Part shown: in pieces, positions 2,441 through 46,773 of the stretch
How the letters are laid out: each line of letters opens with the position of its first letter
Position numbering within the stretch: position 1 is the first letter of the stretch
The notes under the pieces: model-generated
What the model was told of the DNA's origin: nothing
Seen by the model: only the letters and a program-made list of their open reading frames with translations
Databases searched by the model: none
IMG/VR virus record: IMGVR_UViG_3300022666_000111
Direction: 5' to 3' (one strand)
DNA length: 64,000 nt
Source of the DNA: a virus
Lineage: Duplodnaviria > Caudoviricetes
Program-made: the position numbers and the translations under genes

Positions 2441-2647
2441 ATGACGATCGAGGGGTACGTTCCGATGTCAACCGAAGAGCGAGACGCGGCAATGGCGCTC
2501 GCACCATCCCGCCCCGCTGCCAAACGGTGGCTTGAAGCCCACAAGGGACACGAGACGCGGATTGCGAGGGTTGAGAACTACCTCAACCGAGGGGTCTACG
2601 TCACGTTTCGGTGCTCTTGCGGATCTACCGAGGACGTCTTGGTTTAG
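2441..2647 (+). CDS. small hypothetical protein
   Basis: Preceded by TTGATG-N13-TGCATA-N8-ATG. Confidence 0.6.
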   Translation: MTIEGYVPMSTEERDAAMALAPSRPAAKRWLEAHKGHETRIARVENYLNRGVYVTFRCSCGSTEDVLV

Positions 2648-3354
2648 AAGAGGTCCTCGTCCAAGAGGCGATCGAAATAATCCGTGAGGGGTTCCGGCGT
2701 CACTTCAAAGAGGACCCATTCCGCGAAGAACCGCTCATGGTTGAGCTGGATCGCGCTGGAATCGGCTGCAAGAGGGTCATCGTAGGTGACCGTGATGAGG
2801 GGATTCGTAGGGCTATGTAGTATGCCTTCGATGACGCCGGTCAAGCCACCGTTGATTTGACGGACGTGAGCGCCCCCTTGAACCCAGGAGGGTAGCTGCA
2901 TGTTTGGAATCGGGGGTCCAAACATGTTCTCCGCGCCGTTGGGCAAGGTGTCAACGAGAAACGTGTGGCGTCCAACCCCACTGTAGTCGATGTTTCGCCG
3001 AAGCGGTTGGATCACACTGCTGGCGAGGCTCCGTTGGATTTGGACGGCGCCTAGCTGTAGGATGGCCTCCATGGCGCTACGGATGGTGGTCCCTGGGTCA
3101 GGGAGAGGCCGTGGCGGCGCGGGCTCACGGTATTGTAGGCGCTCGATGGCGTTGATCACGTCGCTTCCAAGAAGCGTGTCGAGGGGCTCGGTGTTGTAGC
3201 CGATTTGACGTTGAACCTCAACGCGGAGGTTCAAGCCCACGGGGCTAAGCGTGACGCTGGCGATACCTGGGCGGGCGCGGAGCTGGGCTATAAGCTCCCG
3301 CACGGCTATGCGGGAATCCACGTTGTCGTAGACGAAGACCCAGAAGAGCGGCAT
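2644..3354 (-). CDS. chimeric protein: major-capsid-like segment plus acidic C-terminal tail
   Basis: LASSVIQPLRRNIDYSGVGRHTFLVDTLPNGA resembles a recalled capsid N-terminal region; ends DYFDRLLDEDLF. Confidence 0.65.
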   Translation of the reverse strand: MPLFWVFVYDNVDSRIAVRELIAQLRARPGIASVTLSPVGLNLRVEVQRQIGYNTEPLDTLLGSDVINAIERLQYREPAPPRPLPDPGTTIRSAMEAILQLGAVQIQRSLASSVIQPLRRNIDYSGVGRHTFLVDTLPNGAENMFGPPIPNMQLPSWVQGGAHVRQINGGLTGVIEGILHSPTNPLITVTYDDPLAADSSAIQLNHERFFAEWVLFEVTPEPLTDYFDRLLDEDLF

Positions 3355-3653
3355 CAGGCTTGTCCGACGACTTGCTTGTTTCCGAAGATTCGGTCCCAGC
3401 CGTCACGATAGGCGGGGGTTGCTACGCGCACGGGGCCTTGGTGCTCGACCTTCGTGTAGCGGTAGCGATTGCCTTCGATCTGCTCAACCAAGAAGGAGTC
3501 CTCGGGAAGGGATTCCCCATCCGCCACCTTTCGAATGATACCAGCCTCGATCTGGTGATCCTCTGTGTGACGGACGGCGAGGCGTTGGCCCTCCCCGACC
3601 TCCGGACCGATCACGATCTCATTCCCGCAGTCGCATTTCTTCTCGTCGCCCAT
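3354..3653 (-). CDS. hypothetical protein
   Basis: GGTGTAG-N8-ATG; stop overlaps next start. Confidence 0.65.
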   Translation of the reverse strand: MGDEKKCDCGNEIVIGPEVGEGQRLAVRHTEDHQIEAGIIRKVADGESLPEDSFLVEQIEGNRYRYTKVEHQGPVRVATPAYRDGWDRIFGNKQVVGQA

Positions 3654-3661
3654 GTTGACCT

Positions 3662-4012
3662 CTACACCAGCGGATTGTCCTTTGGAGGGGGCATCACTGG
3701 CAGATATACCGCAAGGATACGGGTCTGTCCTGTTCGAAGACATTTGACCACCCGGTGGACCCCATCGGCGATACACCCGTCGGGGGTGAGAATGATGGGG
3801 TAGCTCAGGTCTGCGCGCTCAACGCGATCGGCGTGCTCCATGATCTCGTTGATGGTCATAGGCCCGGCTGACCAGCAATGGCTGTCCAAGAGCTTATCGA
3901 CGTCCGTGATGAGGCAAAGGGCTACCTCCACGGGCTTGAGGAGGGCGGCCATCCGCCAAAGGTCGGCGACGTCCCAGGAGTAGGTCCCGTCCGAATAGGT
4001 CTGGTCAGCCAT
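3662..4012 (-). CDS. ParB/Srx-like N-terminal domain protein
   Basis: YPIILTPDGCIADGVHRV motif. Confidence 0.6.
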   Translation of the reverse strand: MADQTYSDGTYSWDVADLWRMAALLKPVEVALCLITDVDKLLDSHCWSAGPMTINEIMEHADRVERADLSYPIILTPDGCIADGVHRVVKCLRTGQTRILAVYLPVMPPPKDNPLV

Positions 4013-4437
4013 CAGAGCCACCTCAAGGCGGCAGCGTTGCAGATCAGGTGCATCGTGTTGTCCACGATGATCATGAGCCATACGGTGAGCCAGACCGGGC
4101 GTTCCGGGCTGTACCCGGTAGCCTTACAATCCGCCCAGGCATAGTTCCGCCGTGCGGGTTGCCCTTCCGGCTGGATCCACTTGGGCGCCAAGAAGTTATT
4201 GACCCAGGAAACGTACGTCGCGAGCTTGTAGTGATCAATCACGAAATGCGTCACGAAGATGAAGGCCAGAGCGGCTGGGCTCCGTGTGAGCGCAAAGAAG
4301 GGGAGCGTGTAGAAGAAGGCGTGGATGAGCGCCACGCTCTTGCGGTTGTACTTGTTGGCGGCCATCCAATCGGATTGAAGGCAGTAGTCACCGACCAGGT
4401 GACACAGGAGTTGGTCAAAGGTGCCAAATGGGTTCAT
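4012..4437 (-). CDS. DUF3307-like membrane protein
   Basis: HLVGDYCLQSDWMA..H..HFVIDH..DNTMH; GGTGTAG-N8-ATG. Confidence 0.75.
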   Translation of the reverse strand: MNPFGTFDQLLCHLVGDYCLQSDWMAANKYNRKSVALIHAFFYTLPFFALTRSPAALAFIFVTHFVIDHYKLATYVSWVNNFLAPKWIQPEGQPARRNYAWADCKATGYSPERPVWLTVWLMIIVDNTMHLICNAAALRWL

Positions 4438-4453
4438 GCCCCGATCTACACCG

Positions 4454-4789: not shown

Positions 4790-4844
4790 AAGGGCTCCTT
4801 GATTTACCTTGGTGGTCCTACACCAGGAGGTGTAGAGGAGACCC

Positions 4845-5189: not shown

Positions 5190-5193
5190 CGCC

Positions 5194-5430: not shown

Positions 5431-5447
5431 TCCTCTTGTGAAACGGC

Positions 5448-5999
5448 ATGTCATCAAATGAGGATGACATGAAGCAAGAGCCCACCATACACACCTCCAA
5501 TTCAAAGGCTGAAGTCGATACACGCGTCGCGGAGCTTGTCGCACAAGGGTGGACGAGCCTCCCGGCCGATGACCCTGAGCGTGCCCTTCGAGGATTCGTC
5601 GTGTTCCGTTACGTTTCACGACACACGGGGATCCCCGTGACAGAGGAGGCAATGCGGACCGAAGAGGCGATGGCGCAAGACATCGTCGAGGAGACGCAGG
5701 TCTTCCAGTACAACCTCTTTGGAAAGCCCCTCTACCATGACCACGCCGTTGTCACGGCTGAAGAGCTGATCGCCGCCATGAAGGCGGACCCGACCTACTA
5801 CATTGCGGACAACCCCATGGCGAGACTCTTGGGGTTCGTGTGGTACAAGGTGGACGAAGGTGTGTCAAGAGTTCGAAGGACGACGCTCACGGCCTTCAAG
5901 AGTAGTAGTGACGCAGACCGTGCGTTCATTCAGAGCGAGCGGGAGCGCCTGAAGGACGTCGTGCCGCCATATACCGGGCCACAACCCGCCGAGCAATGA
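5448..5999 (+). CDS. hypothetical protein
   Basis: 183-aa ORF with natural composition. Confidence 0.6.
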   Translation: MSSNEDDMKQEPTIHTSNSKAEVDTRVAELVAQGWTSLPADDPERALRGFVVFRYVSRHTGIPVTEEAMRTEEAMAQDIVEETQVFQYNLFGKPLYHDHAVVTAEELIAAMKADPTYYIADNPMARLLGFVWYKVDEGVSRVRRTTLTAFKSSSDADRAFIQSERERLKDVVPPYTGPQPAEQ

Positions 6000-6150: not shown

Positions 6151-6205
6151 GGCGTCACCTTGACTACACATTCAGCATAGGTGAATCCGTGGTGTAGAGG
6201 GGGCT

Positions 6206-7869: not shown

Positions 7870-7890
7870 ATCTGTCGCGTGGCATAGAAG

Positions 7891-8720: not shown

Positions 8721-8782
8721 GATGTTCCTTGTATGCCGGAGGGTCCAATGGGATCAACCTCTTTTGATACCGCAGGTGGATT

Positions 8783-12498: not shown

Positions 12499-13581
12499 AT
12501 GCCAGATCCTGCTGATGCCATTGCTGACGCCATCGCCGAGGCTATCTCCGAGCTTGGGGGTGATCCGTCCACAGCTATCGTCACGGACTACCACGTGGAG
12601 TACCCTCCTGGGGGTCCCGTCGTTGTGGAAGCCCCCGTGGAGTACACCGAGACAAGGACTCTCCCAGAGCGGATCTTTTCGATCGGGAGCGAGCTTCCGA
12701 TCGAGCACATCCCGGGGAGGGCCACGGGGACCCTTCAGGTTCAAGGGACGCGGGTTGACTCGCAAGCCTTGGAGCGGCTTCTTGGGGCAGGTGAGCCCGG
12801 CATCCTCCGAGGGATGCCGCAGATCTTCAGCACGATCGATGATGAGGCACACTTCGGGGAGGCCATCCGTGAGGGGCTTGGTGTCAACGAGCCTCCGCCC
12901 AACCGCCCCGGGGAGCCTCCCGAGGGGGCCAACGCCAACGGGGACCTCCTCCCGATCACGTCGTTCACCCGGCAGCCATTGCCGTTGGAAGATCCTACCA
13001 CTGCGCAAATCCGTCGAGAGATCGAGGCGTCTGAGGACGCGGAGATCTTCCGGACCCTTGAAGCCGTGGCTCAAAACGGATTCGACCGTCCAAACTTCGG
13101 CATTGGTGCCAGGGTGCAGCAGATGGTCCGGGATATCGAGGACGCCCGCGTCAACCAGCTCCTGAGCAACATCGATGGGCCTACGCCGAGTTGGGTTGTG
13201 AACCCAGCGGATCCCAACGCCCGAGTGTCGCCGCCAATCCCGCCCCCAATCCGGGCCGAACGCGTCACCATGCCCTTGTTCGAAATAGCCTCCAACCCGT
13301 CGATCCCCCTCACGGCGATCCAGGCGAGGCGTTTCAACTTGATCGACCGTGAGCCTCCGAAGTTCGAGGTAGGTGAGTGGGTCACCTACACACACGGTGA
13401 GGGCTTCATCTACAAGGTCCTCGAGGTTGCTGAGAAGACCGTCACGGTTCAATGCTGGAACGAAGAGGTCTGGGACCTTGTGGGCTTGTTGGTGGTAGTG
13501 CCTCGAGAGGACTGCCACCACTCCCCGGCGCCCGTCAAGAACGTCTGGCAGCGCCTGATGGAAGAAGAGGACCTCTTCTAG
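12499..13581 (+). CDS. mosaic protein: tail-tube-like and capsid-like segments plus acidic tail
   Basis: RVTMPLFEIASNPSIPLTAIQARRFNLIDR; REIEASEDAEIFRTLEAVAQNGFD; ends NVWQRLMEEEDLF. Confidence 0.7.
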   Translation: MPDPADAIADAIAEAISELGGDPSTAIVTDYHVEYPPGGPVVVEAPVEYTETRTLPERIFSIGSELPIEHIPGRATGTLQVQGTRVDSQALERLLGAGEPGILRGMPQIFSTIDDEAHFGEAIREGLGVNEPPPNRPGEPPEGANANGDLLPITSFTRQPLPLEDPTTAQIRREIEASEDAEIFRTLEAVAQNGFDRPNFGIGARVQQMVRDIEDARVNQLLSNIDGPTPSWVVNPADPNARVSPPIPPPIRAERVTMPLFEIASNPSIPLTAIQARRFNLIDREPPKFEVGEWVTYTHGEGFIYKVLEVAEKTVTVQCWNEEVWDLVGLLVVVPREDCHHSPAPVKNVWQRLMEEEDLF

Positions 13582-19809: not shown

Positions 19810-20071
19810 GATCGTCCACGACGGTCACACGGTAATCCATGACGGACGTCCCGCAGAGGATGTAGCACAAGAAGTACGCGGCTGTATGCCCATGTAGGAC
19901 ACTCACAAAGCCTTGTGGGTACTTCTGCGGCTCAAGGACGACACGGAGAGGTCCTCCTGCTCCGACGATGGCTGGGATCTTTCCTCGGAGGACCTTGAGG
20001 ACGGTGTCTGCAACGTCCGTGTACGACGTGACCTCGGTGACCTTCTCGTCACAATGGTAGATGTGGATCAT
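19775..20071 (-). CDS. hypothetical protein
   Basis: ATGA coupling. Confidence 0.45.
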   Translation of the reverse strand: MIHIYHCDEKVTEVTSYTDVADTVLKVLRGKIPAIVGAGGPLRVVLEPQKYPQGFVSVLHGHTAAYFLCYILCGTSVMDYRVTVVDDLTGAPSPSPSP

Positions 20072-20439
20072 GGATGCGCCTTAAGGGGCTTGAGGTCAAG
20101 GGCGACGGTTCGAGCGACCTTTTCGGGGACCTCATCGGTGTCGTTGCTGATTCGAAGCTCGGGGGTGTGGCTTGGGTAGTAATAGCCCGGGGGGATAGCG
20201 CGGGAGACGTAGACGTGCGGTCCGAGGCGATCCATGAAGCGGATTGTGCCCATGAAACCCGCTTGGAGGAAGTCCACGAGGGTATTGGGCTCGTAGTCGT
20301 CCTTCGTCGCGTTCTTGATGAAGAGCTGGTAGTCCTTGGGGGAGATCGTGACGGGGAGCGCCTCGAGGTAGAAGAGAGTGTCAACGATCTCCTTCCAAGT
20401 GGCGGGCATGGTCCCCGTCTCCGGAGTGTCGTGCTGCAT
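20068..20439 (-). CDS. major-capsid C-terminal-half-like small protein
   Basis: ISPKDYQLFIK...FLQAGFMGTI....HVYVSRAIPPGYYY; similar to 42227..42445. Confidence 0.55.
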   Translation of the reverse strand: MQHDTPETGTMPATWKEIVDTLFYLEALPVTISPKDYQLFIKNATKDDYEPNTLVDFLQAGFMGTIRFMDRLGPHVYVSRAIPPGYYYPSHTPELRISNDTDEVPEKVARTVALDLKPLKAHP

Positions 20440-20751
20440 GAGGGCGTCCCATAGCTCTATCTCTTCATCGGTAGCTATGCGGGTCTCGCTCTTCCAGCCT
20501 TCGTGTGGTGTGAGGCAGCCTCTGTCGATGTGAAACGTGAATCCATAGCGGGCGGCGGCGCGGGATCACCAGATTATCGTAGCCTCGCACACGCCCTTCG
20601 CTCTTGGTCTGGTGGAGGCCGTCTACCACGAATTCACGCCAGGATACCTCGCCCAATCCGAGGCTATCTTCGATCCGATCCAACTCGCAGCCTATCGAGT
20701 CGACCGTCCTTTCCTCAAGAAGGGCAAACGGCCAGCTAAGAAAGAAGACAA

Positions 20752-32098: not shown

Positions 32099-32596
32099 AT
32101 GGGAGACATCCACTCCAAAACAGCCAAGGCGCTCTTCGGAGAGGCAACGCCCCCAAGGCGGGGCCAGGCGATGGCCATCAACTTCGCGTGCATCTACGGC
32201 AGGAGTCCAACGAGTATGTCAAAAGAAGCAATGGTTCGGCTCATCAAGCACCGTGACTCCTGTCACGATGACTGGGGAGAAGATGGGGCTTGGCGCACCC
32301 TTTGTGGGCTACGCACGATGGAGGCCGATAGGTTTCCAGAGGACCTTCATGACGCCTTGAAGGAGTTCCAGGCGATGGATGAAGAGGCCCAATACAGTCT
32401 CGTCTACGAGACTCTTGGCATTACGCCCGAGACGACCTTCCAAGTGCTTCCAACGGGGCATACAGAGGAGCAGCTTCGGGCGGCCTTGCGCCTCTTGGGC
32501 TTGCAGGTTTACGAGCGACAGGGCAAGCTCATCGTATCCCGAGTCGAGCTTGACGCGGCGGACATCGCCGAGATCGAAGGGCAGGTTATCGAATGA
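32099..32596 (+). CDS. protein with N-terminal family A DNA polymerase motif-B-like fragment
   Basis: DIHSKTAKALFG...RRGQAMAINFACIYGRS; GGTGTAG-N9-ATG. Confidence 0.65.
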   Translation: MGDIHSKTAKALFGEATPPRRGQAMAINFACIYGRSPTSMSKEAMVRLIKHRDSCHDDWGEDGAWRTLCGLRTMEADRFPEDLHDALKEFQAMDEEAQYSLVYETLGITPETTFQVLPTGHTEEQLRAALRLLGLQVYERQGKLIVSRVELDAADIAEIEGQVIE

Positions 32597-33125: not shown

Positions 33126-33303
33126 CGGGTTCACGAAAGCCGTTGACGAGATGATCCGGGCGGAGGGGGACCACCCCAACACACAGGGGCAGGAGCCCTT
33201 GGGCGTCAAGTCGACGATCAAGGTGATCTACGTTGGCACCAACACAGAGATCTGCTGCAACCCCGAATGGGGCTTCCAGTCGGATGAACCGGCTTCTTCT
33301 TGA
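33091..33303 (+). CDS. hypothetical protein
   Basis: AGGAG SD. Confidence 0.5.
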   Translation: MGLKDHREELIDGFTKAVDEMIRAEGDHPNTQGQEPLGVKSTIKVIYVGTNTEICCNPEWGFQSDEPASS

Positions 33304-34174
33304 CATCGTCCAAGACGGGCAGATCCCGATCTACGCTGCGCCTACGCGTGGGATGCGCTACTACACGCACACGGAGGAGCTGGTTTGGGATCCCCGTCGA
33401 GCCACCAACAAGATTCTCATCTCCGTAGGCGTCGACCATCGTCTCGACAGCATTCGAGAATTCTTGGGCACTGAGCTACTTCGTGATGAGGGCACCCTCA
33501 TTTTCGCGGTCAGGTATGTTGAGGCCCTCACGAGGGCTTTTCAAAACACGCCCACGCTCTTTGTCCTGGGTGGCATGGCCTTCGTACCGGGGGCCAACAC
33601 GCTAGGGACGCCTCTCGAGAATGGTGACCCTTGGCCTATTGTTCGGCAGTTCATTCACACCACCTACCGCCTTCAAAAGGGGCTTGAGCCTGACACGGCG
33701 CACCCAATCATTGACGACGCGGTGCAGCGCTACTTGGCGGGGCGCACAGCGCTGGATGTTGGCGTCCAACGGTCGGAGGCAAGGGACAAGGCCCTAGCTA
33801 TTCTAACGGCCAACCTTGACCCCGTGCAGCGGAAGGAGTTCCTTGAGCGCGGTCACTTCCACGTTGTCGGGCAGGACGGGCGCACCTACCGAATCGACAA
33901 GAAGCACACACATGGCGTTCACCGGATCGAGGGCGGCGTCAAGACGTTCGAGTACTGCCTTGTGGCGGACGTACACATACCCACCTTTGACCTTATGCTC
34001 ATGCAGAAGCTCCTTTTGGAGTCAGACACGACGCATTTTCTCGAGAAGGCAAATGCTTGGGATCTTCGTGGGGGCAAGCGTAAGTTCCTCCGAGGAGGGC
34101 ACCTCGCCATTGTTGATCCCAGCGGTGTAGTTGTGAAGCATGGCGAAGAAGAAGCCCCCGGAGCCCCTGGATGA
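33284..34174 (+). CDS. two-part protein with capsid-like N-terminus
   Basis: LLLDIVQDGQIPIY..DPRRA...ELLRDEGTLIFAV; C-terminal GHFHVVGQDGRTYRI..DLMLMQKLLLESD domain. Confidence 0.55.
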   Translation: MNRLLLDIVQDGQIPIYAAPTRGMRYYTHTEELVWDPRRATNKILISVGVDHRLDSIREFLGTELLRDEGTLIFAVRYVEALTRAFQNTPTLFVLGGMAFVPGANTLGTPLENGDPWPIVRQFIHTTYRLQKGLEPDTAHPIIDDAVQRYLAGRTALDVGVQRSEARDKALAILTANLDPVQRKEFLERGHFHVVGQDGRTYRIDKKHTHGVHRIEGGVKTFEYCLVADVHIPTFDLMLMQKLLLESDTTHFLEKANAWDLRGGKRKFLRGGHLAIVDPSGVVVKHGEEEAPGAPG

Positions 34175-34592
34175 GGACTGGCTGCATCTCAACGATAAGC
34201 CGGTGCCCCATAGTCCAACCGAGATCCACGAAAGCATTGTAGCGCGGATCGACGCGGTCATGGACATCATGGCCAGCGGGGGCGTACCCTACCAGCAAAA
34301 GATCCTCCTTGAGTCAGCAGAGATGCGGGAGTCCTTGCAAGACCGCCTTGAGAGCATCGAGGTTGATCTCTTCGACTTCATCGGCAAGCGGCGGATGGAG
34401 CTGAAGCGCAAGATCGACACAATGCGTCAAAACCTGACACGTGCTGAAAACGAGGACAGGGTTCTTGAAGCGGCGCGGGGTTGTCTCAAGAGGCCCGTGA
34501 TCGATGCTGACGCCAAGCCGCCGCCCCAAGAGATCGATGCTGACGCCAAGCCGCCGTCTCAAGAGATCCTTGAGGACATCCCCTTCTATTGA
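34140..34592 (+). CDS. coiled-coil protein with EDIPFY tail
   Basis: GGTGTAG-N9-ATG; internal 11-aa repeat. Confidence 0.65.
   Translation: MAKKKPPEPLDEDWLHLNDKPVPHSPTEIHESIVARIDAVMDIMASGGVPYQQKILLESAEMRESLQDRLESIEVDLFDFIGKRRMELKRKIDTMRQNLTRAENEDRVLEAARGCLKRPVIDADAKPPPQEIDADAKPPSQEILEDIPFY
34499..34564 (+). repeat. 33-bp in-frame tandem duplication (IDADAKPPxQE x2)
   Basis: Read directly. Confidence 0.9.
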
Positions 34593-34642
34593 TCCCTGGT
34601 GGTCACTGGCATAGGTTGATCCCTGGTGGTCACTGGCATAGG
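34589..34642 (+). repeat. perfect 27-bp tandem duplication of a promoter motif
   Basis: TTGATCCCTGGTGGTCACTGGCATAGG x2. Confidence 0.9.
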
Positions 34643-34648
34643 ACGAAC

Positions 34649-35038
34649 ATGACAACCGAGATGGAAAAGGACTGGGAGACCCTCAAGAAGGATCCCGTGC
34701 CGAACATGCCTACCGAGAGGCTGGCGGAGTTCGTCATGGCCTACTGTGACGGGCAGATCTTCACCCTCCACAATCTACGTGACCCCGCGCTAGCGCACAT
34801 CGTCTTCATGCCGATCGTCTTTGGCGGGATGTCGCGCTTTCAGCCCGAGGATGTGGGCACCGTTTGGGAATACATGAACCAAGCGGGGAAGCTGGGCGTC
34901 AATGGCAACCCGATCTTCACGTCCATGCACGTCATGAGCAAGTCGGATTGGGAGAAGGCCGTCAAGGCGATCGAGCGCGAGAAGGAACGGCGCCGAGAGG
35001 CCACGCGGACGGTCCTTGAAGGACTTGACGCGGGTTGA
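34649..35038 (+). CDS. hypothetical protein
   Basis: ATG 8 nt after the second GGCATA. Confidence 0.7.
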   Translation: MTTEMEKDWETLKKDPVPNMPTERLAEFVMAYCDGQIFTLHNLRDPALAHIVFMPIVFGGMSRFQPEDVGTVWEYMNQAGKLGVNGNPIFTSMHVMSKSDWEKAVKAIEREKERRREATRTVLEGLDAG

Positions 35039-35060
35039 GGCGACGGGCTAAGCTCCAGGC

Positions 35061-35273
35061 ATGATATACGTCGTCATCTGGCTTGTGGACAAAGAGGTTG
35101 AAGCCCAAGGGGAGTTCAAGACTGCCAGCAAGGCTGTGGATTGCTTCTGCAAGTTCACGAAGGCAGCGGGTATCCCCATGGACGGAAGGCCCAAAGGACT
35201 GTCCAAGGGCCGCAACCTCATGAACGCGGCGGGTAAGCACGCGATCTACGCCTTCAGCCTTGAAGAGCGCTGA
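35061..35273 (+). CDS. small hypothetical protein
   Basis: Lies between two versions of a gene 3' end. Confidence 0.6.
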   Translation: MIYVVIWLVDKEVEAQGEFKTASKAVDCFCKFTKAAGIPMDGRPKGLSKGRNLMNAAGKHAIYAFSLEER

Positions 35274-35303
35274 GCACCGTTCCTTTGATAAGGTACCCTA
35301 GCG

Positions 35304-35501
35304 CAGTTCAAGGAGGACGACGTCGGCACCATTTGGGAGTACTACAACAAGGCGGGGGCAAGGAGCATCAACGGCTACCCTTGTTTCTTCTCGCTACACG
35401 TCATGTGCAAAAAAGATTGGGAGAAGGCCATAAAGGCCATCCGGCGTGAGCTTGAGCGACGTCGTGAAGCTGCTGAAGAGGTGCTGGCGGACCTTGGCTG
35501 A
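35304..35501 (+). pseudogene. start-less second copy of the 3' half of 34649..35038
   Basis: QFKEDDVGTIWEYYNKAG..HVMCKKDWEKAIKAIRRELERRREA; in-frame TAA upstream. Confidence 0.8.
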
Positions 35502-35525
35502 TTCTCTTATGCTAACAGGGTAACG

Positions 35526-37589
35526 ATGGCTCCCCCGCGTTACCCTGTTAGCCGCAACGTTCGAAAGACACGTGCCGCAGATCTGAGCAGAGATCTTGAG
35601 CGGGCCTTACACGCTATCGAATCGGGCATCGGCCAGATTTTTGATAACGCGGAGGCGCTACGCTGTGTGGACACTGACGGGTACAACCAATCCGCGTTGC
35701 ATGTGTTTGTCACTGGTGTGGGCTTGTTTCAATGGGATCCCACATCAGTTGCGTTGGATGACGGTGTTAATGCCATACAACCAAAACTAGGTCCGTCTGC
35801 AAGCGGGCCAGGTAGGTGGGTCCCTGCATCGTCTGGGGGTGGTCCTGGGACCGTTAGTGTGTACGACGAGGGTGTTCTTGTCCGCGCAGGGGTGTCCGAA
35901 ATAGACTTCGTTGGCGCGGATGTCTTGGCTTTAGGGCCAGGAGGATTGCCTTCTCGAGTTCGTGTCTATATCCCCCCGCCAGCATTCTTGTCGCATTGGA
36001 ATACAGCAGACGGAACTAACGGGCCGCAGTTCGTAACCGAGTCGATCTCGCGGACCACGACCCACATTTCCACGCCAGTTGGCGGTGAGGGGACCCCCTT
36101 CCGCACGGGGGGTTGGGCTGGGTCGAACCAGGACACCACGAGAAGCAACACGGTGACACTGACAACAGCGGCGCCCACGACGGGATGGGGTGGCGACTCC
36201 ACCATGACGGTGACCGTCATGGATGCGGACGGAGTGACGCCGCTCGAAGCGTACACGACGCCTCCAATAACAGCCAACGCAACACACGTGGCCCCAACAG
36301 GTCGAATCACAGTCGCTGTAACGGGATTTGCTGTAGACTCTATTCGTTACCAAGCTAGGGTCACAATTACTGTGAACGTCCTGAGCATACTGTCTACTGC
36401 TGGAAGACAGGGCGGGCGGTACAATGTTGTTGCCACACAAACCACCGACAGCAGTACAGATGGGTCAGGGCCGTACACCTACACACAAACGGCTGTATTC
36501 CTCGACACAGACCCCTTCACACCGAGTCTAACTGGGCTCACCATAGCCGAAACGGCCGGGTTTGTGACGACGAAGCATCTGAGCGGGGTCGAGTACTACA
36601 CGCTTGGAAGTAGGTTCACCGTTGCCATTTCGGACATTGACTATCTGAACGCAAACACCGCCAGAACGGTCGGGAACGTAGAGATAGCCGGACCTGAGTA
36701 CGGCCTTCCAGCTCTTAGCCAATCGCCGTTCGGAGTTGGAGCAGCAAATTTCGCCGGGTGGACGAACAACAACGACAACACGAACGCGTCATACAACAAA
36801 ACGGACTGGGCCATTACAGCAGCTAGCTACAGGCTCATGAGCCCGACAGCCTCCATCGACGCTTACCCCAGAGACCCTTGGGCCTCCGGTGCTCTTGTGG
36901 CCTCGGCCAACGCCAATGTCTTGATCGACACCTACGCAGCGAATTCGACTGCACTAGCTGAATACTTCAACGATGAGTCCTATAGAGAGGACCCCGCGTC
37001 ATTCCCAGGCGTCGGGACTTGGGATTCAACAAGCACGCTGGTTGCCGGACAAGCCCAAGTTTGGAATGGTCAACTCGTCACTCCGAACACGACGACGTAC
37101 GTTCGACCTGACGGAGCGGCTACGCCGAACGCCAACTGGTCTGGGTTTGACCCTGACCTTGGGGGTCCCAACCCGGACTATTCAGGCCTTGGGGCTCCCG
37201 TAAACTACGGAAGGCGCTTCACACAGCCTCCAGGCAACATCCCCAGCTTTGCGATGACGTTCACAGGAACCTTTGCGGCAGGTAACGCCTTGGCAGACCT
37301 TGTCGCGGGTAATCTGGAGATCTTCGTCTATCGTATAGGCGGGTTTGGGCATGTGGGCACACCCCCGGGCAACACGTTTCCACTTCGGGTACACCTCCCG
37401 TTCAACTTCGCGTCTTGGGATGATGGTACAACAGTGCCTGGATCCGGCATTCGTGAAGGATCCTCGGCTGGAAACGCCATCAACTGCACACTAGGTGCTG
37501 GCACACCCGCTAATGGCGGGCTCTACGTACACATCAGGATTCTGAACTCGGCGACAAGGCTAGACAGCCTTGTCGTAACCTTCTTTTGA
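35526..37589 (+). CDS. putative virion structural / tail-associated protein
   Basis: 687 aa, Thr/Gly/Ser-rich beta-type composition; W...S...DDG..AIQP....GRW. Confidence 0.65.
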   Translation: MAPPRYPVSRNVRKTRAADLSRDLERALHAIESGIGQIFDNAEALRCVDTDGYNQSALHVFVTGVGLFQWDPTSVALDDGVNAIQPKLGPSASGPGRWVPASSGGGPGTVSVYDEGVLVRAGVSEIDFVGADVLALGPGGLPSRVRVYIPPPAFLSHWNTADGTNGPQFVTESISRTTTHISTPVGGEGTPFRTGGWAGSNQDTTRSNTVTLTTAAPTTGWGGDSTMTVTVMDADGVTPLEAYTTPPITANATHVAPTGRITVAVTGFAVDSIRYQARVTITVNVLSILSTAGRQGGRYNVVATQTTDSSTDGSGPYTYTQTAVFLDTDPFTPSLTGLTIAETAGFVTTKHLSGVEYYTLGSRFTVAISDIDYLNANTARTVGNVEIAGPEYGLPALSQSPFGVGAANFAGWTNNNDNTNASYNKTDWAITAASYRLMSPTASIDAYPRDPWASGALVASANANVLIDTYAANSTALAEYFNDESYREDPASFPGVGTWDSTSTLVAGQAQVWNGQLVTPNTTTYVRPDGAATPNANWSGFDPDLGGPNPDYSGLGAPVNYGRRFTQPPGNIPSFAMTFTGTFAAGNALADLVAGNLEIFVYRIGGFGHVGTPPGNTFPLRVHLPFNFASWDDGTTVPGSGIREGSSAGNAINCTLGAGTPANGGLYVHIRILNSATRLDSLVVTFF

Positions 37590-37601
37590 GAAAGAGAAGC
37601 C

Positions 37602-37862
37602 ATGTTCCATCGAAGATTTGTAGTGAAAGTGTCCGAAGGGTTGGTTGAATTCTCTGCTATGACCACAGAGAATCGAGTTGATGTCCATACCTTCAGGGTT
37701 GAAGCCTTCAAGGACATTCTCTCCAACGCCAAAGAAGAGGGGAAAGACGTCCGTATGTCCGTGCCTGTGACGTCGACGCATAGGACAGTGTATTGCGTCC
37801 ACAAGGCTGAGTTCTCGGTGCTGTCCGCCGAGTTCGATGCGCAAACCTCGGAAGGCAAGTGA
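37602..37862 (+). CDS. hypothetical protein
   Basis: Operon position. Confidence 0.55.
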   Translation: MFHRRFVVKVSEGLVEFSAMTTENRVDVHTFRVEAFKDILSNAKEEGKDVRMSVPVTSTHRTVYCVHKAEFSVLSAEFDAQTSEGK

Positions 37863-37870
37863 GGTAGACA

Positions 37871-38557
37871 ATGTCTTTTACCAATCAGGAGAGAATCAAC
37901 GCGGTTGCCAAGGCACTTCTTGGTAACGTCCTTGATGCCGACGCAAGCGCACAGTGGTATGAAAGCACACTACCCTTCGGATTCTCGCTTGACTCGAGAC
38001 AAGTGTGGACGCAGGCGGATGTCGTAAAGGCATCCCCTGCAGCCAATTTGGCGGCGGCACAGGCCGCTTGTGCGGGACCCCTCGCTGGCATCGTGGAGGA
38101 CAGGTCCCTCGTCACTTCCGCCGTGAGGTTGTCTCCTGTTCCGGGCGTCAGCAATACGTATGTAGCGCTTGCCACGTACGGCGATTGGACAAGCCAGCGT
38201 CTCATCAACTGGCTCAAGCCTCAGTTTGTGCCCCAAGTCAACGGGCAGCCGAGCTTTGGTTACGCCATGCGGCTCTACAATGGGGATCCTGGTGCGGGCG
38301 GCACAGAGGTATTGACGACCGATGGTGGTACAGGGACGGGCGTCAACAAGTCTGTTGGCTGGATCTTCAACTACGACAATGGCATCCTGCTTCTGGCTTC
38401 GGACTTTGCAGTGGCGAACCCCTACATTGTAGGGTTCCGGTACATCGGGACTACGGCTGGGGGCGGAAGCACCGGCATCAACAACCTCGACGGCGGACGC
38501 GCCAATGAGAACTTTGGCGGCGTGGCTATCAGTCCGATTGACGGAGGAGGCGCCTGA
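37871..38557 (+). CDS. putative virion structural protein
   Basis: GAGG SD; WIFNYDNGIL..YIG; ends NLDGG..IDGGGA. Confidence 0.65.
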   Translation: MSFTNQERINAVAKALLGNVLDADASAQWYESTLPFGFSLDSRQVWTQADVVKASPAANLAAAQAACAGPLAGIVEDRSLVTSAVRLSPVPGVSNTYVALATYGDWTSQRLINWLKPQFVPQVNGQPSFGYAMRLYNGDPGAGGTEVLTTDGGTGTGVNKSVGWIFNYDNGILLLASDFAVANPYIVGFRYIGTTAGGGSTGINNLDGGRANENFGGVAISPIDGGGA

Positions 38558-38865
38558 TGGCTGTGCAGATTCAATTAAGACGGGACTTGGCAGCAGCTTG
38601 GACGCTTGCCAACCCAACGCTTGCCCAAGGTGAGCTTGGCGTCGAAACGGACACATGGCTTGCCAAGATGGGGAACGGGATAGACCCTTGGGTTACACTC
38701 CCCTACTGGCCAGCATCATCTGGAGGTGTCTTGCTCAAGACGACAGCACAGCGAATTGCCATGCCGCCATCTACAACAGCGGGCACGCTGGTGTATGACA
38801 CGGACATGCTGAAGCTGTTTGTGTGGCAAGCTGACATCGACTACCCTGTCTGGCTGGAGGTGTGA
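38557..38865 (+). CDS. tail-fibre anchor (Mtd_N / hyaluronidase N-terminal-like) protein
   Basis: IQLRRD.AAAW..ANP.LAQGELGVETDT...KMGNG...W..LPY. Confidence 0.8.
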   Translation: MAVQIQLRRDLAAAWTLANPTLAQGELGVETDTWLAKMGNGIDPWVTLPYWPASSGGVLLKTTAQRIAMPPSTTAGTLVYDTDMLKLFVWQADIDYPVWLEV

Positions 38866-38866
38866 C

Positions 38867-40231
38867 GTGGCATACAACTGGGGCACAGCGCTCAAAGCAC
38901 CTCTCCCGTTTGATGGTCAGGTATTCGTAGACGATCAGAAGCATGTCTGGCAATGGGTTTCCGCCAACGGCGCGTGGATGCGTCGTGAGAATCTTGAGTT
39001 CCGACGGGTGCAGGAGCGGTATCTGCACCTCATGGACAGAAGCACAACTACGATCGCAATCGAAAGAGCCCCCGGCCACCTGTTTCCTAAGTGGGACAGT
39101 GTGTACGATCTTGCGTTTGTAGAGATACTGAGTGTTGGAGGCAACATCCTCGGACGCCGTGCGCACATGGACCTAGCCGCTTTGAACACTTGGGCCGCGT
39201 CGGTTGTGCCTACAACGGGCGGGGTGTTCGACGAAGATGTCTTGATTCGAGTGTATGAAGTGTTCGATACACAACAAGGGATTGTGCGCTTCAATAGCTG
39301 GAACGGTGTGTACGGGTCATTTAGAGGGAGAGCTTGTTACACGGCAGACCGTGGGCATGGCCGCACAGCTCCAAACCAAGGGACTCTTGCAGGATACAGT
39401 GACGGCTTTCTTTTGCGGCATGGTGGTCCAGGGCTTGAGAGACGCTTGATGCAGTACTTCTACAACTTGGATCCTGGTAGGGACCAGAACAAGGTGTGTT
39501 GGACCTCAAACAAGCGACAACTTTACAATATGCCGAAAAACCAGAACATCACGATTGTTCACCCCGGTGGGTTGTCAGCGCTCAGGTACTGTTGGAACTG
39601 GGGTGCGTCTGACTACACACAGGTGACGCCTGGAAGCCGGTGGGAGGTCTTCAACGACGGGGGTATGCTAAGGCAGAATCCCTGCCATGTCTATCGAAGG
39701 GTGGACGGGACAACCCTGTTCCTAGAGCAACCTGACACGTCCTTGCGAGGCTTCGGAGCAATATTTCAATCCGGAAACCCTATCGAGGGTATGTTGGCAT
39801 ATGCCATTCGAGACGTGGACGACCCGAATCAAGTCGCTTTTCTGCTCAAGCCTATGGGCGTGACGAAAATAGGCCTGTTGAGTATCGGGATGCCGAACTA
39901 CGAGCTGTTGGCCGAAGGGCGTGGCCGCAATTGGAAAACGGAACCGCGTGTTACCAACCTCACCAAACAGGGATTCACCTTCGACCGTGGGTGGCTAGAT
40001 GGGATACGTGTTACAGATTTGCCAAGCGTGGTGCAAACCCTAAAGAGGGTGGTGTCACACACGACACCTTCGGCGGAAAGCATCGACACATACAACTGGC
40101 CAGACCTTGTCACGTTCTACCTAAGACAGAGCGAGACAGGAATCCGAACTGAGACACTCCCACGAGGTATTCGTGTGGAAAGGCGGAAGAGCGGGCTTCC
40201 GGTATCTCTGATGGACGTAAGTGTCAAATAG
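38867..40231 (+). CDS. putative tail/receptor-binding protein (paralog of 40243..41625)
   Basis: GGAGG SD plus GTG; shared blocks with the next gene. Confidence 0.6.
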   Translation: MAYNWGTALKAPLPFDGQVFVDDQKHVWQWVSANGAWMRRENLEFRRVQERYLHLMDRSTTTIAIERAPGHLFPKWDSVYDLAFVEILSVGGNILGRRAHMDLAALNTWAASVVPTTGGVFDEDVLIRVYEVFDTQQGIVRFNSWNGVYGSFRGRACYTADRGHGRTAPNQGTLAGYSDGFLLRHGGPGLERRLMQYFYNLDPGRDQNKVCWTSNKRQLYNMPKNQNITIVHPGGLSALRYCWNWGASDYTQVTPGSRWEVFNDGGMLRQNPCHVYRRVDGTTLFLEQPDTSLRGFGAIFQSGNPIEGMLAYAIRDVDDPNQVAFLLKPMGVTKIGLLSIGMPNYELLAEGRGRNWKTEPRVTNLTKQGFTFDRGWLDGIRVTDLPSVVQTLKRVVSHTTPSAESIDTYNWPDLVTFYLRQSETGIRTETLPRGIRVERRKSGLPVSLMDVSVK

Positions 40232-40242
40232 CTGGAGAGCAC

Positions 40243-41625
40243 ATGGAATACTTCAGATCTCGCCGGATGACAGCGTCTCAGTGGTTGGGACGTGATCCCG
40301 TTATGAACCAAGGGGAGCTTGGGTTCGAGACAGACACAGATAGGGCAAAAATCGGAGATGGCACCACCAAGTGGACCGGCTTGCCCTACATGGATGCTCA
40401 AACAACAAGCTCGACTCGAACGCGGCTTGAATACGGGACGCTTCGTCTTACTGAGGCCACGAAGACATCTGTTACCCAATTGGGCTTTTCGGGTATCGTG
40501 GTGAAACAACACCCTGACCTGATGGGTTTGAACTTCGATCGTTACCGTAGATGCTCGTGGGACATCTACGAAATCGGGGGGAACAGTTGGAGCGGGTTGA
40601 GCTTCTCGACAGAAAGTGCGCTATACGCGTTTCTGGCCGCCAATGCTGCCCAGACTGGGGGGTACTACTCACGCAACATCATGGCGACTGTGTATGACAC
40701 GGTGGACGCTACCATTCCTGTCGTCAACAAGATGTGGGGGATCAACACGTTCTATTCCATGCTCAAAGGCCGGAAACGGTACAATGACAACCGTCAGACT
40801 TTGGGTAGGGATCTGATCAACTGGCCTCAGTTTGAAGACTGGTTCCAGGCTGTATGCAGCCGAGGTCTCGGCCTCCCCGCAGGAGCTTATGCCGTTAACA
40901 GGGAACGTGCGCTGTGGTTGACGCGGAGTAATCGCACAAGGTACGGCATGCCAACAGAGGGCATTACGCTAAACAGCCTTAGCACTACTGGGGACCGTAT
41001 GGTGTACAACTCCGCGACGGCCACATGGGTCCCAATGTCAGGGGGGGACTTCCAGCATTGGGAAGCACCACCAACAGGGTATGGAAAAGTCTTTGCAACG
41101 ATCTGCGAGAACAACAGGGCGGCGTGGGAATTTGAGACCGCTTATACGGGCATCGTGCGCAGTTTACTTGCTTACGGAGCCAGCTCGATGTCCATGATCT
41201 GTCTCTACAGGTTGCACGGCATCAGCGGCGGAAACAGCACACACAACGCAATTCTGGTGAAGCCGGTTGGGATAGACCGCGTAGGCATCAACTGGTACGA
41301 TCCGGCGCAGTACACACTGTATGCACTACATGAGTGCCCAAACGAAACACCACGAATTCGGCCGATCACAGGGATACCGGCGAAACACATAAGCCAAGGC
41401 AACGACTTGATCTGGCTCAACAAGTCTGTCTGGACACCTTTTGAGGATGGTCGAAAGCCTACGGTCACAAGCAGGATGAAATCCCGTCTATTCCCTACGA
41501 CCAGGTTCTTCCTACGGGACAACGCGACACACAGGATCTCGATTCCAAGCCAAATGTGTGTCAAAATGACACTCAACGCCAAAGACGCGATGGTCAAATG
41601 GGGCATCTTCCCCGCAGGTAGGTGA
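40243..41625 (+). CDS. tail fibre / receptor-binding protein with Mtd_N-like N-terminus
   Basis: RR.TASQW...DPV..QGELGFETDT..AKIGDG.T.W..LPY. Confidence 0.75.
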   Translation: MEYFRSRRMTASQWLGRDPVMNQGELGFETDTDRAKIGDGTTKWTGLPYMDAQTTSSTRTRLEYGTLRLTEATKTSVTQLGFSGIVVKQHPDLMGLNFDRYRRCSWDIYEIGGNSWSGLSFSTESALYAFLAANAAQTGGYYSRNIMATVYDTVDATIPVVNKMWGINTFYSMLKGRKRYNDNRQTLGRDLINWPQFEDWFQAVCSRGLGLPAGAYAVNRERALWLTRSNRTRYGMPTEGITLNSLSTTGDRMVYNSATATWVPMSGGDFQHWEAPPTGYGKVFATICENNRAAWEFETAYTGIVRSLLAYGASSMSMICLYRLHGISGGNSTHNAILVKPVGIDRVGINWYDPAQYTLYALHECPNETPRIRPITGIPAKHISQGNDLIWLNKSVWTPFEDGRKPTVTSRMKSRLFPTTRFFLRDNATHRISIPSQMCVKMTLNAKDAMVKWGIFPAGR

Positions 41626-41629
41626 CACA

Positions 41630-41983
41630 ATGGTAAGCACAAACAGCTTCAACTTTCTGTACGACGTGGGCCAAACAGTCTACGCAAGGGTGTCCAAGAA
41701 ACGACAGGTACCCGTGCAGTGCGTGATTTGCAACAGCACGGGTGAGGCGGTCATCACAGGTAAGACCTTCACGTGCCCTGAGTGCCATGGCGAAAAGAAT
41801 ACGTTGGAAGAGTTGGTGGTGTCGGCCGAACCGTTTACGGTCATACGTGTGATGGCCACCAAGTGTGCTTCAAGAGGCTGTAGGGTGCGCTATGAAGTGT
41901 CCGGTGGACGCGCCATGAAAGTGTTCGAAGAAAGTGAGCTGTATGCCTCTGAAGCCGAAGCCAACCCCGCACAAGACCATTAA
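41630..41983 (+). CDS. DnaJ-type zinc finger small protein
   Basis: CVICNSTG...CPECHGE. Confidence 0.6.
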   Translation: MVSTNSFNFLYDVGQTVYARVSKKRQVPVQCVICNSTGEAVITGKTFTCPECHGEKNTLEELVVSAEPFTVIRVMATKCASRGCRVRYEVSGGRAMKVFEESELYASEAEANPAQDH

Positions 41984-42008
41984 TCCTTCTATATTGCGTA
42001 TAGGGCAT

Positions 42009-42104
42009 GTTGTTCCCTTGCCCTGGTGGAACAAAAGAACGTTGCTCCCTTGCCCCGGTGGAGCAAAAGAACGTTGCTCCCTTGCCCCGGTGGAGCAAAA
42101 GAAC
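42009..42104. repeat. three 32-bp tandem repeats with internal palindrome
   Basis: GTTGCTCCCTTGCCCCGGTGGAGCAAAAGAAC; TTGCTCC/GGAGCAA arms. Confidence 0.9.
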
Positions 42105-42140
42105 TAAAACCCATCCTGCTCAAGCAGGTGTTGATTTACA

Positions 42141-42230
42141 CCAGCCCATCTTGGAGTGCTGGTCCTTAGTGCAGCCACTTTTGGAGTGTTGAGCCTGTCG
42201 CCAGCCACTTTTGGAGTGTTGGCCCTTACT
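42141..42230. repeat. three 30-bp-period repeats with CAGCCACTTTTGGAGTGTT core
   Basis: Read directly. Confidence 0.85.
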
Positions 42231-42445
42231 TCGCTTGCGTTCGAAAGTTCTGCCGCGATATCGTGGACTTCGTGACCGACCGGGAGACCCTCAAGAAGGG
42301 GATCTACGCGCACCTCTGGAACGCCGAGATCCGTTGCCGCAAGGACATCCCCGCAGGTTACCTTGTGCGCATCGGTGAGGATGAGGGCAATCGGGATCTC
42401 CGCGCGGCTTGGAAGCCCTCGCGAAAGAAGCTCTACCGCTACTAA
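42227..42445 (+). pseudogene. major-capsid-like fragment (possible GTG start at 42263)
   Basis: VRKFCRDIVDFVTDRETLKKGIYAHLWNAEIRCRKDIPAGY; similarity extends upstream of the only start codon. Confidence 0.6.
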
Positions 42446-42463
42446 GCGGTGTAGAATGAGGGC

Positions 42464-42814: not shown

Positions 42815-42817
42815 CGC

Positions 42818-43318: not shown

Positions 43319-43376
43319 TGCTTTCTGATTGATCGCCCACCCCTTGCGGCATAACACCCGCGAGAAAGGACCCCTC

Positions 43377-44671: not shown

Positions 44672-45075
44672 GACCCTTCAAGCCATACGCCGTGCCTACC
44701 GGGATTCGTCCGGTGCGAACCATTGAGTACTATGAGGGGCCGCTCCTCATCGAATTGAAGGACGCTGAAGGCGCGACGTGGCTGATGTTCTGGGTTGATT
44801 GTGACACCACGCACAACCGCTGGCTTCTTCTGAGGCGGCGCCCTCTTGCCATCGAGGCATACCTCCACCGCAACCTTGACCGGCGAAGGCTCGTTCTCGG
44901 ATCTCGCTACTTCCACCCAGGTTTGAAGCAGCCCTCGGATGAACCTGTGGTAGCCGTAGACACCGACGTTAAGGGCCATTGGATCAGGGCTTGGTTGATC
45001 GACGTTCTCCCCGAGGAGTATATCCCAGAGCCCTTCACCTTCTTCGATCCGGAGACAAGCAATGCCGAGCCTTGA
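44668..45075 (+). CDS. DUF6575-like protein
   Basis: YYEGPLL......W.D......WLL. Confidence 0.5.
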   Translation: MRPFKPYAVPTGIRPVRTIEYYEGPLLIELKDAEGATWLMFWVDCDTTHNRWLLLRRRPLAIEAYLHRNLDRRRLVLGSRYFHPGLKQPSDEPVVAVDTDVKGHWIRAWLIDVLPEEYIPEPFTFFDPETSNAEP

Positions 45076-45712
45076 CTTCCTCCCAACGATCCGCCCGCCT
45101 CAACGCGTCTACCAGGACACGGTTGAAAACGTCCGCGCATACATCGGCCAAGGCGGGGCGGTTGGGATCCCCGTCTACGACATAGACTTCGAGGGCCACG
45201 ACCTCGTGTGTATCCTTGCGCTCAAGGCCCAAGAGGCCGTCTCGAAAGAAACGCCCCTAAGCGAAGAGATCCAGCGCCTCGTCACAAGCCTCTTCCAAGA
45301 CCGGGCTCGCTTGATCGTCAAGCCTGGGCAAAGGCGGCGCGTTTATGACGAGGATGGCGATATCCATTCGAACGCCGTCCCATACTACTCCTCTGACGAC
45401 GCCGCAGAGGACATGATGGCGGCCATTCGAGCGGAGTCACACTGGAGGGACGTCCTCGACGAGATCTACCGCGTCGCAAGCGAGGCCCTCGGCGGACGCA
45501 AGCTCTTCTTCGCCTTCGTGGACATCCTCCAATTCGACATTGACGGATTGGAACGCCAGCTCACCAAACTAGGCCACCGTCAGGTTGAATTCGCGATCAT
45601 CGTAGACAACAACACGGACGGATTCACGATTCCGAAGGCTCCGCCCTTGCCGCCACCGCCGCCGAAGCCTCCAGAGGACTTCTTCGAGCACCTCGAGGTA
45701 GATTGGATTTAA
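45062..45712 (+). CDS. hypothetical protein with acidic tail, possibly capsid-derived
   Basis: IPVYDID..RLVTSLFQ; ends PKPPEDFFEHLEVDWI. Confidence 0.6.
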   Translation: MPSLDFLPTIRPPQRVYQDTVENVRAYIGQGGAVGIPVYDIDFEGHDLVCILALKAQEAVSKETPLSEEIQRLVTSLFQDRARLIVKPGQRRRVYDEDGDIHSNAVPYYSSDDAAEDMMAAIRAESHWRDVLDEIYRVASEALGGRKLFFAFVDILQFDIDGLERQLTKLGHRQVEFAIIVDNNTDGFTIPKAPPLPPPPPKPPEDFFEHLEVDWI

Positions 45713-45714
45713 CC

Positions 45715-46086
45715 ATGCGACGTCTCATCCCCATTCTCATCGCCCTTTGCTCCTGCGGAAACTACGCCAAGATCGATGGAGGCCGTGTAGGTGAGGGTAA
45801 GCTGGGCGGCATTCGTCCGGGGCCGTATGACCCTGATGTTGTCGTTGTTGGCGCGCACGTATCCCTTGCGGCGGGGGACGTGCCTTGTGACGACGCGGAT
45901 CCGAACTACGTCACAACGGACGTCAAAGGGGAGTACGAGTACCTCCACGTAGATTCAGGGTGCAGCGAGGACCCGGATCGCTACACGTTCTGCGTGATTC
46001 ACCCTGACTACGAGACGTTCCGAGAGGTCTTGATGCACCGCCCGGTAGGGCCGAACATCAACGTGGAGCTGGTCAGGAAGCCTTGA
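45715..46086 (+). CDS. putative lipoprotein
   Basis: MRRLIPILIALCSC; TTDVKGEY..HPDY. Confidence 0.6.
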   Translation: MRRLIPILIALCSCGNYAKIDGGRVGEGKLGGIRPGPYDPDVVVVGAHVSLAAGDVPCDDADPNYVTTDVKGEYEYLHVDSGCSEDPDRYTFCVIHPDYETFREVLMHRPVGPNINVELVRKP

Positions 46087-46288
46087 AACCGCAGATCGGG
46101 CAAGTGTCTTTGAACCCGCTGCGGCCAAGGAAGGGATGGCAGACCCGGTGACATAGGGGCTCAGAGGCTCGGCGATGCTGCTCCTTTCGGATGACATCGT
46201 GCAAGGACGCCGCTAGGCGCGTCCTCCCCTCGGCTGAGCTGAGCGCGTCTTTGACAAGCTCGTCGGGACTTGGGGGTTTATCGGTCAT
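46073..46288 (-). CDS. capsid N-terminal-helix-like peptide plus zinc ribbon
   Basis: LVKDALSSAEGRTRLAASL; CHRVC..CPICG. Confidence 0.55.
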   Translation of the reverse strand: MTDKPPSPDELVKDALSSAEGRTRLAASLHDVIRKEQHRRASEPLCHRVCHPFLGRSGFKDTCPICGFKAS

Positions 46289-46773
46289 GACAGCCTCACG
46301 CAAGCAACGTTACCAAAGACGAAGGCTATGCCATCGCGCCCTTCGGACCAGGGGTTCATCCCGAGGAATTCTGGCTCCGGAAGACCTACAATGACACCAT
46401 CGGGGAAGGCGTACTCCGGCGCAATGACTACACGCGCCGTGGTAGGGGGCAGCACCGTCTCTCCGGAGACATAGAGCGTCGTGATCCGGAGATCCTGAAC
46501 CTGGCTCTCGAGCGCGTCCATGAGCGTCCCTTCAAACCCAGGGGGCAGTACCGTCGTGGCCCGTTGGAAAGCTGGAGTGGCCTTGACCATCTCGTTGAAG
46601 ATTCGGTTGAAGTCAAGGTTGGCGTGCAGTGTGATTGGATGCCGTCCGTCTCGGATCACCATGTGGATAGCATCCGCATCCATCCCAAGGATGTAGATGG
46701 GTTTGTCGAAGTCATAGTAGACGGCGCACAGGTCGGGAACGTGGTCCCTTGTGAGGAGTTCGCGGTAGTCCAT
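46285..46773 (-). CDS. miniaturised major-capsid-like protein (162 aa)
   Basis: DY...YYDFD..ILG.DA; LMDALE..DLRITTLYVS; PDG...LPEPEFLG; GGTGTAG-N8-ATG. Confidence 0.6.
   Translation of the reverse strand: MDYRELLTRDHVPDLCAVYYDFDKPIYILGMDADAIHMVIRDGRHPITLHANLDFNRIFNEMVKATPAFQRATTVLPPGFEGTLMDALESQVQDLRITTLYVSGETVLPPTTARVVIAPEYAFPDGVIVGLPEPEFLGMNPWSEGRDGIAFVFGNVACVRLS

Follow-up and report, generated by a model that had tools for sequence, protein, structure and literature searches.

Capsid protein fragments embedded in chimeric accessory genes of a huge phage

The stretch of DNA analysed here (the window; 64,000 nucleotides of IMG/VR record IMGVR_UViG_3300022666_000111) is part of a 341,404-bp phage contig, which has a sister contig of 341,626 bp and probably derives from a biofilm metagenome. 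It is a dense accessory region of approximately 122 genes, most of them unannotated, with a tail-fibre-like block of lower GC at about 35.5–41.6 kb, and dispersed through it are open reading frames (ORFs) that contain pieces of a major capsid protein (MCP). The original prediction for this DNA had proposed at least seven MCP-derived ORFs and a weaker candidate; all eight, with the motifs quoted for them, were present. Five (12499, 2644, 42227, 46073 and 20068, each named by its first position) were supported as MCP-derived and 46285 was graded as probable, while 33284 and 45062 were unsupported (Table 1).

Table 1. Positions of piece-bearing ORFs, proposed members and a related ORF in the window (aa, amino acids; HMM, hidden Markov model).
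Position (strand)	Feature	Pieces and motifs	Evidence
2644–3354 (-)	Chimeric ORF, 236 aa	Residues 107–144 (window 2932–3036) = MCP 23–59, N-arm helix end and DY motif	HMM E = 6e-9; tblastn 57%
12499–13581 (+)	Chimeric ORF, 360 aa	Virion-protein-like piece (aa 57–94), then two MCP pieces; acidic tail; own GGTGTAG motif	HMM E = 4e-16
20068–20439 (-)	Diverged MCP A-domain piece	20155–20367 (MCP about 184–243)	hhalign p = 9e-5; HMM E = 1.2e-3 (widest profile)
42230–42445 (+)	60-aa ORF from GTG 42263	MCP A-domain piece 42230–42385 (MCP 191–242)	HMM E = 9e-10 (42170–42442)
46073–46288 (-)	ORF, 71 aa	MCP N-arm helix piece 46187–46261 (MCP 11–38); Cys/His-rich tail	HMM E = 0.006 (six-frame), 1e-4 (widest profile)
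46285–46773 (-)	ORF, 162 aa	Probable MCP derivative, highly diverged, internally deleted, DY motif to C-terminus; own GGTGTAG motif	
33284–34174 (+)	Proposed member, unsupported as MCP-derived		hhalign p = 0.026; shuffle p = 0.05, rank 21; no HMM match
45062–45712 (+)	Proposed weak member, unsupported	Acidic tail	hhalign p = 0.11; shuffle p = 0.15 (rank 44), with a high score at just one of the gap settings
32099–32596 (+)	ORF, 165 aa	Opens with isolated 44-residue DNA polymerase A piece (motif B region)	PF00476 E = 1e-5, positions 185–232 of 381

An HMM was built from 80 related MCPs plus those of Tunturi_5 and phage G and run on all 1,741 six-frame ORFs of the window, and a wider profile was run separately on the 122 called genes. 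The phage's own MCP is absent from the window, and the window ORFs were compared with the MCPs of other phages. Significant similarity to the HK97-fold capsid family, as expected under the original prediction, was observed for five ORFs (E = 4e-16 to 1.2e-3): four were matched in the six-frame search, the reversed controls of which produced no match with E < 6.8, and 20068 with the widest profile. The same five ranked highest among 124 sequences when a deletion-tolerant aligner was applied, with 46285 next. No capsid family in Pfam was matched by any window piece.

The donor family is the HK97-fold MCP represented by phage G gp27, phrog_2522 and Tunturi_5. In PHROGs, 2644 (E = 0.0012) and 12499 both matched phrog_2522, the major head protein, and a search with the 12499 piece retrieved the MCPs of LR745208, Tunturi_5 and Bacillus phage G; the MCPs of mycobacteriophage cluster C are more distant members. 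The solved structure of the family is phage G gp27 (PDB 6WKK), an HK97-family protein (bioRxiv 10.1101/2024.12.16.628780). In Pfam, the donor MCPs matched Phage_capsid (PF05065) only and no encapsulin family, and a fold search with a weak MCP model (predicted local distance difference test, pLDDT, 42; used only for rough element positions) returned mostly phage capsids, with some encapsulin-like shells among them. Therefore, of the 'HK97-fold, encapsulin-like' origin first proposed, the HK97-fold MCP part was confirmed, while the likeness to encapsulins is one of shared fold only. The MCP clade nearest to the window pieces showed 89–94% identity among 80 viral contigs. Contigs with gp27-type MCPs (L342–L351) were also found binned into unrelated bacterial and archaeal metagenome-assembled genomes; these are probably misbinned phage DNA and indicate no reliable host.

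Each supported piece comprised 25–65 of about 291 MCP positions (coverage of 10–25%), with 31–73% identity to the donor family over 25–55 residues, and complete shell-building domains (N-arm, E-loop, P- and A-domains) were not found. Most pieces accounted for 10–40% of a chimeric protein and were embedded in unrelated sequence, so that the earlier description as 'separate genes' was overstated. Nor did the pieces tile the MCP, as had been proposed, the E-loop (about 60–82) and the C-terminal region (about 245–290) having no supported piece apart from 46285. The pieces are too short and too scrambled to fold as HK97 subunits or to build a shell; they descend from the gp27 family, yet are not members of it. 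In 12499, the two MCP pieces occurred in swapped order, the spine-helix piece (about 13012–13086; MCP 119–146, extended to 119–153 in the HMM match) preceding that of MCP 84–116 (13252–13350; 83–117 in the HMM match), and the virion-like piece matched phrog_985 (E = 0.0014), a virion structural family of 141 positions. The sister-strain allele of this gene diverges in two patches (codons 88–123 and 160–199), one of them over the spine-helix piece, while most neighbouring genes are almost unchanged. The piece in 46073, which is ATGA-coupled to 46285, retained 6/6 deeply invariant MCP residues.

Two of the five supported ORFs appear to be damaged in this strain. The MCP piece proposed at 20068 was present, but the ORF is a decapitated form of a 176-aa, translationally coupled gene in the sister strain, the window copy having lost its start through a rearrangement at 20556; its family had no match in a protein atlas search. 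The rearrangement (window 20556; L188:2088–2441) replaced the minus-strand operon that continues in the sister strain with a plus-strand block. The frame proposed at 42227–42445 did not prove to be a start-to-stop ORF: it opens after a stop at 42167, there is no earlier start, and the first GTG, at 42263, falls within the piece. The missing start is not a sequencing error, because four other samples show almost the same sequence here; 42227 is probably a remnant behind short direct repeats. The non-coding gap upstream of this piece (42017–42225) contains approximately 2.7 copies of a 32-nt direct repeat and three of a repeat of about 18 nt, nearly invariant in other samples. The surrounding region (40500–42450) was matched at approximately 99% identity by contigs, probably of DNA, in runs from wastewater, sediment, soil and groundwater, and is possibly a module common to related phages; genes beyond about 42750 had no comparable contigs.

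The whole-query colinear alignment of 46285 exceeded 1000/1000 shuffles (p < 0.001) at three gap settings and ranked 2–4 of 98 genes. Other methods were weaker (HMM E about 1; hhalign p = 0.029), no MCP match and no relatives were found among 1.8 billion representative proteins, and its single-sequence fold was unusable (pLDDT 32). Since 32099, a non-member, scored a comparable z when aligned locally, and given the insignificant HMM match and the lack of relatives and of a usable model, 46285 was graded only as a probable internally deleted MCP copy. It differed from the sister strain by two synonymous and zero replacement changes. A language-model lead identifying it as a phage nozzle protein (PF25675, 794 positions; 0.93) was rejected, there being no Pfam match and no member above the cut-off in five relatives. 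Further putative pieces at 5469–5999 and 3662–4012, and an antisense match at 52059, failed shuffles or E-value limits; the first of these is a 176-aa protein (plus strand) with an internal two-fold repeat faintly like MCP 250–273 (not significant, E = 0.06–2.7). No relatives of 12499, 33284 or 46285 were found beyond sister strains.

No head module was present in the window, and there were no head genes among the top family matches listed for neighbours of the pieces. The pieces are surrounded by accessory ORFans rather than lying in a head module with protease, scaffold and decoration genes; by contrast, the MCPs of Tunturi_5 and phage G sit with head genes. The motif GGTGTAG was confirmed as real, with 43 copies in the window against 8 expected, 22 of which had ATG 8–9 nt downstream, and it precedes two of the proposed members, 12499 and 46285. 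Copies occurred throughout the window (e.g., 4829, 6191, 18447/18453, 46788/46794), often back-to-back at divergent gene pairs, except in 34125–42447, where there was none; the motif resembles a -10-only promoter of leaderless mRNAs. An acidic-aromatic C-terminal tail (aromatic-x-x-L-x-E-D-x-F/L) was common to six otherwise unrelated proteins (2644, 12499, 45062, 55257, 55688 and 63616), with similar tails at 56323 and 55072; it recalls clamp-binding or single-stranded DNA-binding protein (SSB)-type docking tails. Elsewhere in the window, 84–2382 (minus strand) holds three tandem paralogues of 236–272 aa, with three homologues in the relative G003, while one gene matches the PADLOC model PD-T4-10_B (E = 1e-13) and another a type II restriction enzyme model (4e-9).

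Relatives were surveyed by whole-record searches for extra MCP pieces. These were found, with 1–6 in each of several genomes belonging to two MCP clades: five or six in G002, four in G004/G005, and others in Tunturi_5, G043–G047, G050, G060 and G064. The pieces are dispensable, and none was found by whole-record search in G001, G003 and G009 (all near-complete) or in phage G; a further 27 partial contigs around head genes also contained none, which is uninformative for whole genomes. In both clades the pieces resembled the MCP of their own clade, and because of this the pattern points to repeated, independent capture in separate lineages. Swapped order was also observed in Tunturi_5 and G047/G050. 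In several relatives the pieces follow Cys knuckles or twin-arginine-like leaders; RRxFL leaders of this kind lie 5' of pieces at L089:1486–1878, L302:923–1177, L304:1016–1474, L106, L112 and L360, including that of the cultured Tunturi_5. The complete Tunturi-clade genome G045 (L307, about 273.8–274.6 kb) has a full-length, diverged second MCP paralogue.

Comparison of each genome's own MCP with its own pieces in G002 and G004 gave a pooled proportion of silent differences (pS) of 0.67 and of replacement differences (pN) of 0.38 for ten pieces, with frames open. The Tunturi clade had the same pattern of near-saturated silent sites with amino acids kept, and two orthologous pairs of piece-genes (Tunturi_5/G047 and G045/G046) kept the piece best despite saturated silent sites. 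MCP residues that are the same throughout the two clades and in phage G were kept in 59% of cases, against 46% for others (p = 0.0016); invariant hydrophobic, Gly and Pro residues were kept in 63/94 cases and charged or polar residues in 51/99. These sequence comparisons indicate that pieces in relatives are under protein-level selection, weaker than that on the MCP itself, and are often gained and lost.

The pieces might instead be neutral debris, that is, recent duplications or captures of MCP DNA in decay. The lack of a start ahead of the piece in 42227, the decapitation of 20068, and 2644, which differs from the sister strain by three replacement and zero silent changes in or just before its piece (small numbers), would be consistent with this. 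However, silent sites are near-saturated while frames remain open at 30–88% amino-acid identity, and orthologues of piece-genes occur in different phages; neutral decay to near-saturation would not be expected to leave open frames of 60–100 codons at 35–45% identity. In addition, word-limited searches among 5.8 billion proteins failed to retrieve a close donor MCP for either the 12499 or the 2644 piece, which argues against their recent capture. We consider the explanation very improbable; for the class as a whole, neutral debris is unlikely.

Donors other than the MCP were also observed. The polymerase piece of 32099 matched polymerases of relatives (blastp, 0.001) and is preceded by its own GGTGTAG motif; judged by its sequence, 32099 is the same kind of gene with a non-capsid donor. 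When the window was compared with 196 proteins conserved among five relatives, short matches were to the MCP (three genes), the polymerase (one) and one at noise level. In a within-genome control, in which each genome was compared with its own core genes, the MCP accounted for approximately 1.3% of core residues and for five dispersed pieces in G002 and three in G004; other core genes produced mostly intein, repeat and paralogue matches. A conserved adaptor-like gene contributed one piece in each of these genomes, that in G004 being fused to an MCP piece.

One possible, if somewhat doubtful, account of this donor pattern is gene birth by shuffling, in which the MCP gene, being heavily transcribed and recombining, would be a frequent donor of DNA, and its pieces would supply stable helices or strands, or a small scaffold from the A-domain, to new proteins with functions unrelated to the capsid. 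Consistent with it are the wide spread of source regions along the MCP, the swapped order and unrelated settings of the pieces, the scraps of polymerase and other virion proteins, the better retention of hydrophobic, Gly and Pro residues, and the fast decay of pieces. However, the same few pieces (N-arm helix, MCP 85–115 and A-domain) were kept in independent lineages, other conserved core genes seldom donate, and pieces of 25–35 residues would be poor stand-alone scaffolds.

Alternatively, native contacts with subunits or scaffold might bring the pieces into heads under assembly, where they would load or attach their fused cargo or tune assembly, or might let them spoil the capsid of a co-infecting relative. 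In HK97-fold capsids the N-arm and spine helix take part in contacts with other subunits and with scaffold, and pieces of both appear to be frequent, as far as the low-confidence mapping allows; many piece-proteins also have shared terminal tags. Such docking or poisoning is nevertheless unlikely: the MCPs of this clade are approximately 90% identical, so that a poisoning piece would also act against the phage that encodes it; pieces are missing from several near-complete genomes; and piece-genes lie outside structural modules.

The reading favoured here, which is held tentatively, is mimicry under selection, in which the pieces would bind factors that recognise the MCP, host sensors for example. 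The comparisons show that short parts of the MCP gene were copied repeatedly, in separate lineages, into accessory genes distant from the head module and fused to unrelated modules or tags, sometimes shuffled. Each piece would retain one surface of the capsid, from the N-arm helix, the E-loop-base strand, the spine helix or the A-domain. Its partner would be a factor recognising MCP that has not yet assembled; a host capsid sensor is the most plausible, a satellite or competitor protein the alternative, and the piece would occupy this factor without triggering it. A varied set of pieces would cover several sensors and hosts, which would explain both turnover and dispensability. Triggers of Avs sensors include the MCP, portal adaptor, tail tube and DNA polymerase, and Avs7 grips the MCP A-domain (bioRxiv 10.64898/2026.01.04.697583); CapRel and staphylococcal Thoeris likewise respond to the MCP (PMC13728456). 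The donors seen here (MCP, adaptor-like, virion protein and polymerase) overlap these triggers, and for this reason, together with the engagement of the A-domain by Avs7, the donor bias fits mimicry.

Several points weigh against mimicry. Similarity-based detection biases both the ratio of replacement to silent substitution (dN/dS) and the invariant-site test, inflating their signals, and selection on the window pieces rests on the MCPs of other phages. The conservation of the MCP (89–91%) far exceeds that of any other core gene, and hence its pieces are the easiest to detect. Two of the eight candidates failed, the two pieces 42227 and 20068 look damaged in this strain, and pieces of other core genes occur. 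The twin-arginine-like leaders of several relatives would move the pieces out of the cytoplasm. A short capsid peptide can activate defence, rather than block it, as in T4 Gol-Lit. Finally, Avs7 buries 3,700 square angstroms of folded MCP (bioRxiv 10.64898/2026.01.04.697583), and because of this a 30-residue piece cannot present the surface that Avs7 recognises.

The piece-genes differ from each of the known systems with which they were compared. The donor itself (phage G 6WKK, phrog_2522, Tunturi_5 gp334) is a full-length shell subunit of 280–320 aa in a head module, whereas the pieces are accessory chimeras. The T4 vertex protein gp24 is a full-length MCP paralogue with a complete HK97 fold that co-assembles; like it and the G045 copy, the pieces add a second capsid sequence to a genome, but as fragments only, several per genome and non-essential. 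Among satellites, the capsid-interference proteins Ccm, CpmAB, TcaP and Sid act on or resemble capsid protein, Ccm having an HK97-like fold. These are whole folded proteins encoded by a parasite against its helper, whereas the pieces are encoded by the phage and copied from its own MCP lineage, with their genes dispersed across 44 kb of the 341-kb contig. In T4 Gol-Lit, a short capsid stretch within gp23 is read by a defence protein, and DSAD1 competes with the tail tube for DSR2; these provide precedents for a capsid stretch read by defence and for a sensor blocked at its trigger site, but Gol activates and DSAD1 is not known to derive from a virion gene. In the open literature (subscription journals not covered), no account of such piece-genes was found, nor of an inhibitor cut from an MCP. 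They form a real gene class, undescribed in that literature.

The cultured phage Tunturi_5, which has a laboratory host (PMC11924767), carries an MCP-piece gene (PP885688.1, about 122.4–122.7 kb). Phages cannot easily change their core proteins, and these are sensed for that reason; the MCP considered here is approximately 90% identical across distant genomes. If mimicry is correct, decoys derived from the trigger would be an undescribed way out, and each piece would mark a surface read by a sensor. It is conceivable, though rather unlikely, that huge phages more widely keep a renewable library of excerpts from their own conserved virion and replication proteins, chiefly the capsid, which would act as decoys and saturate the pattern-recognition sensors of the host; this would be a general counter-defence strategy built from self-epitopes. 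Even without a decoy function, the pieces document a route of gene birth for the ORFans of huge phages.

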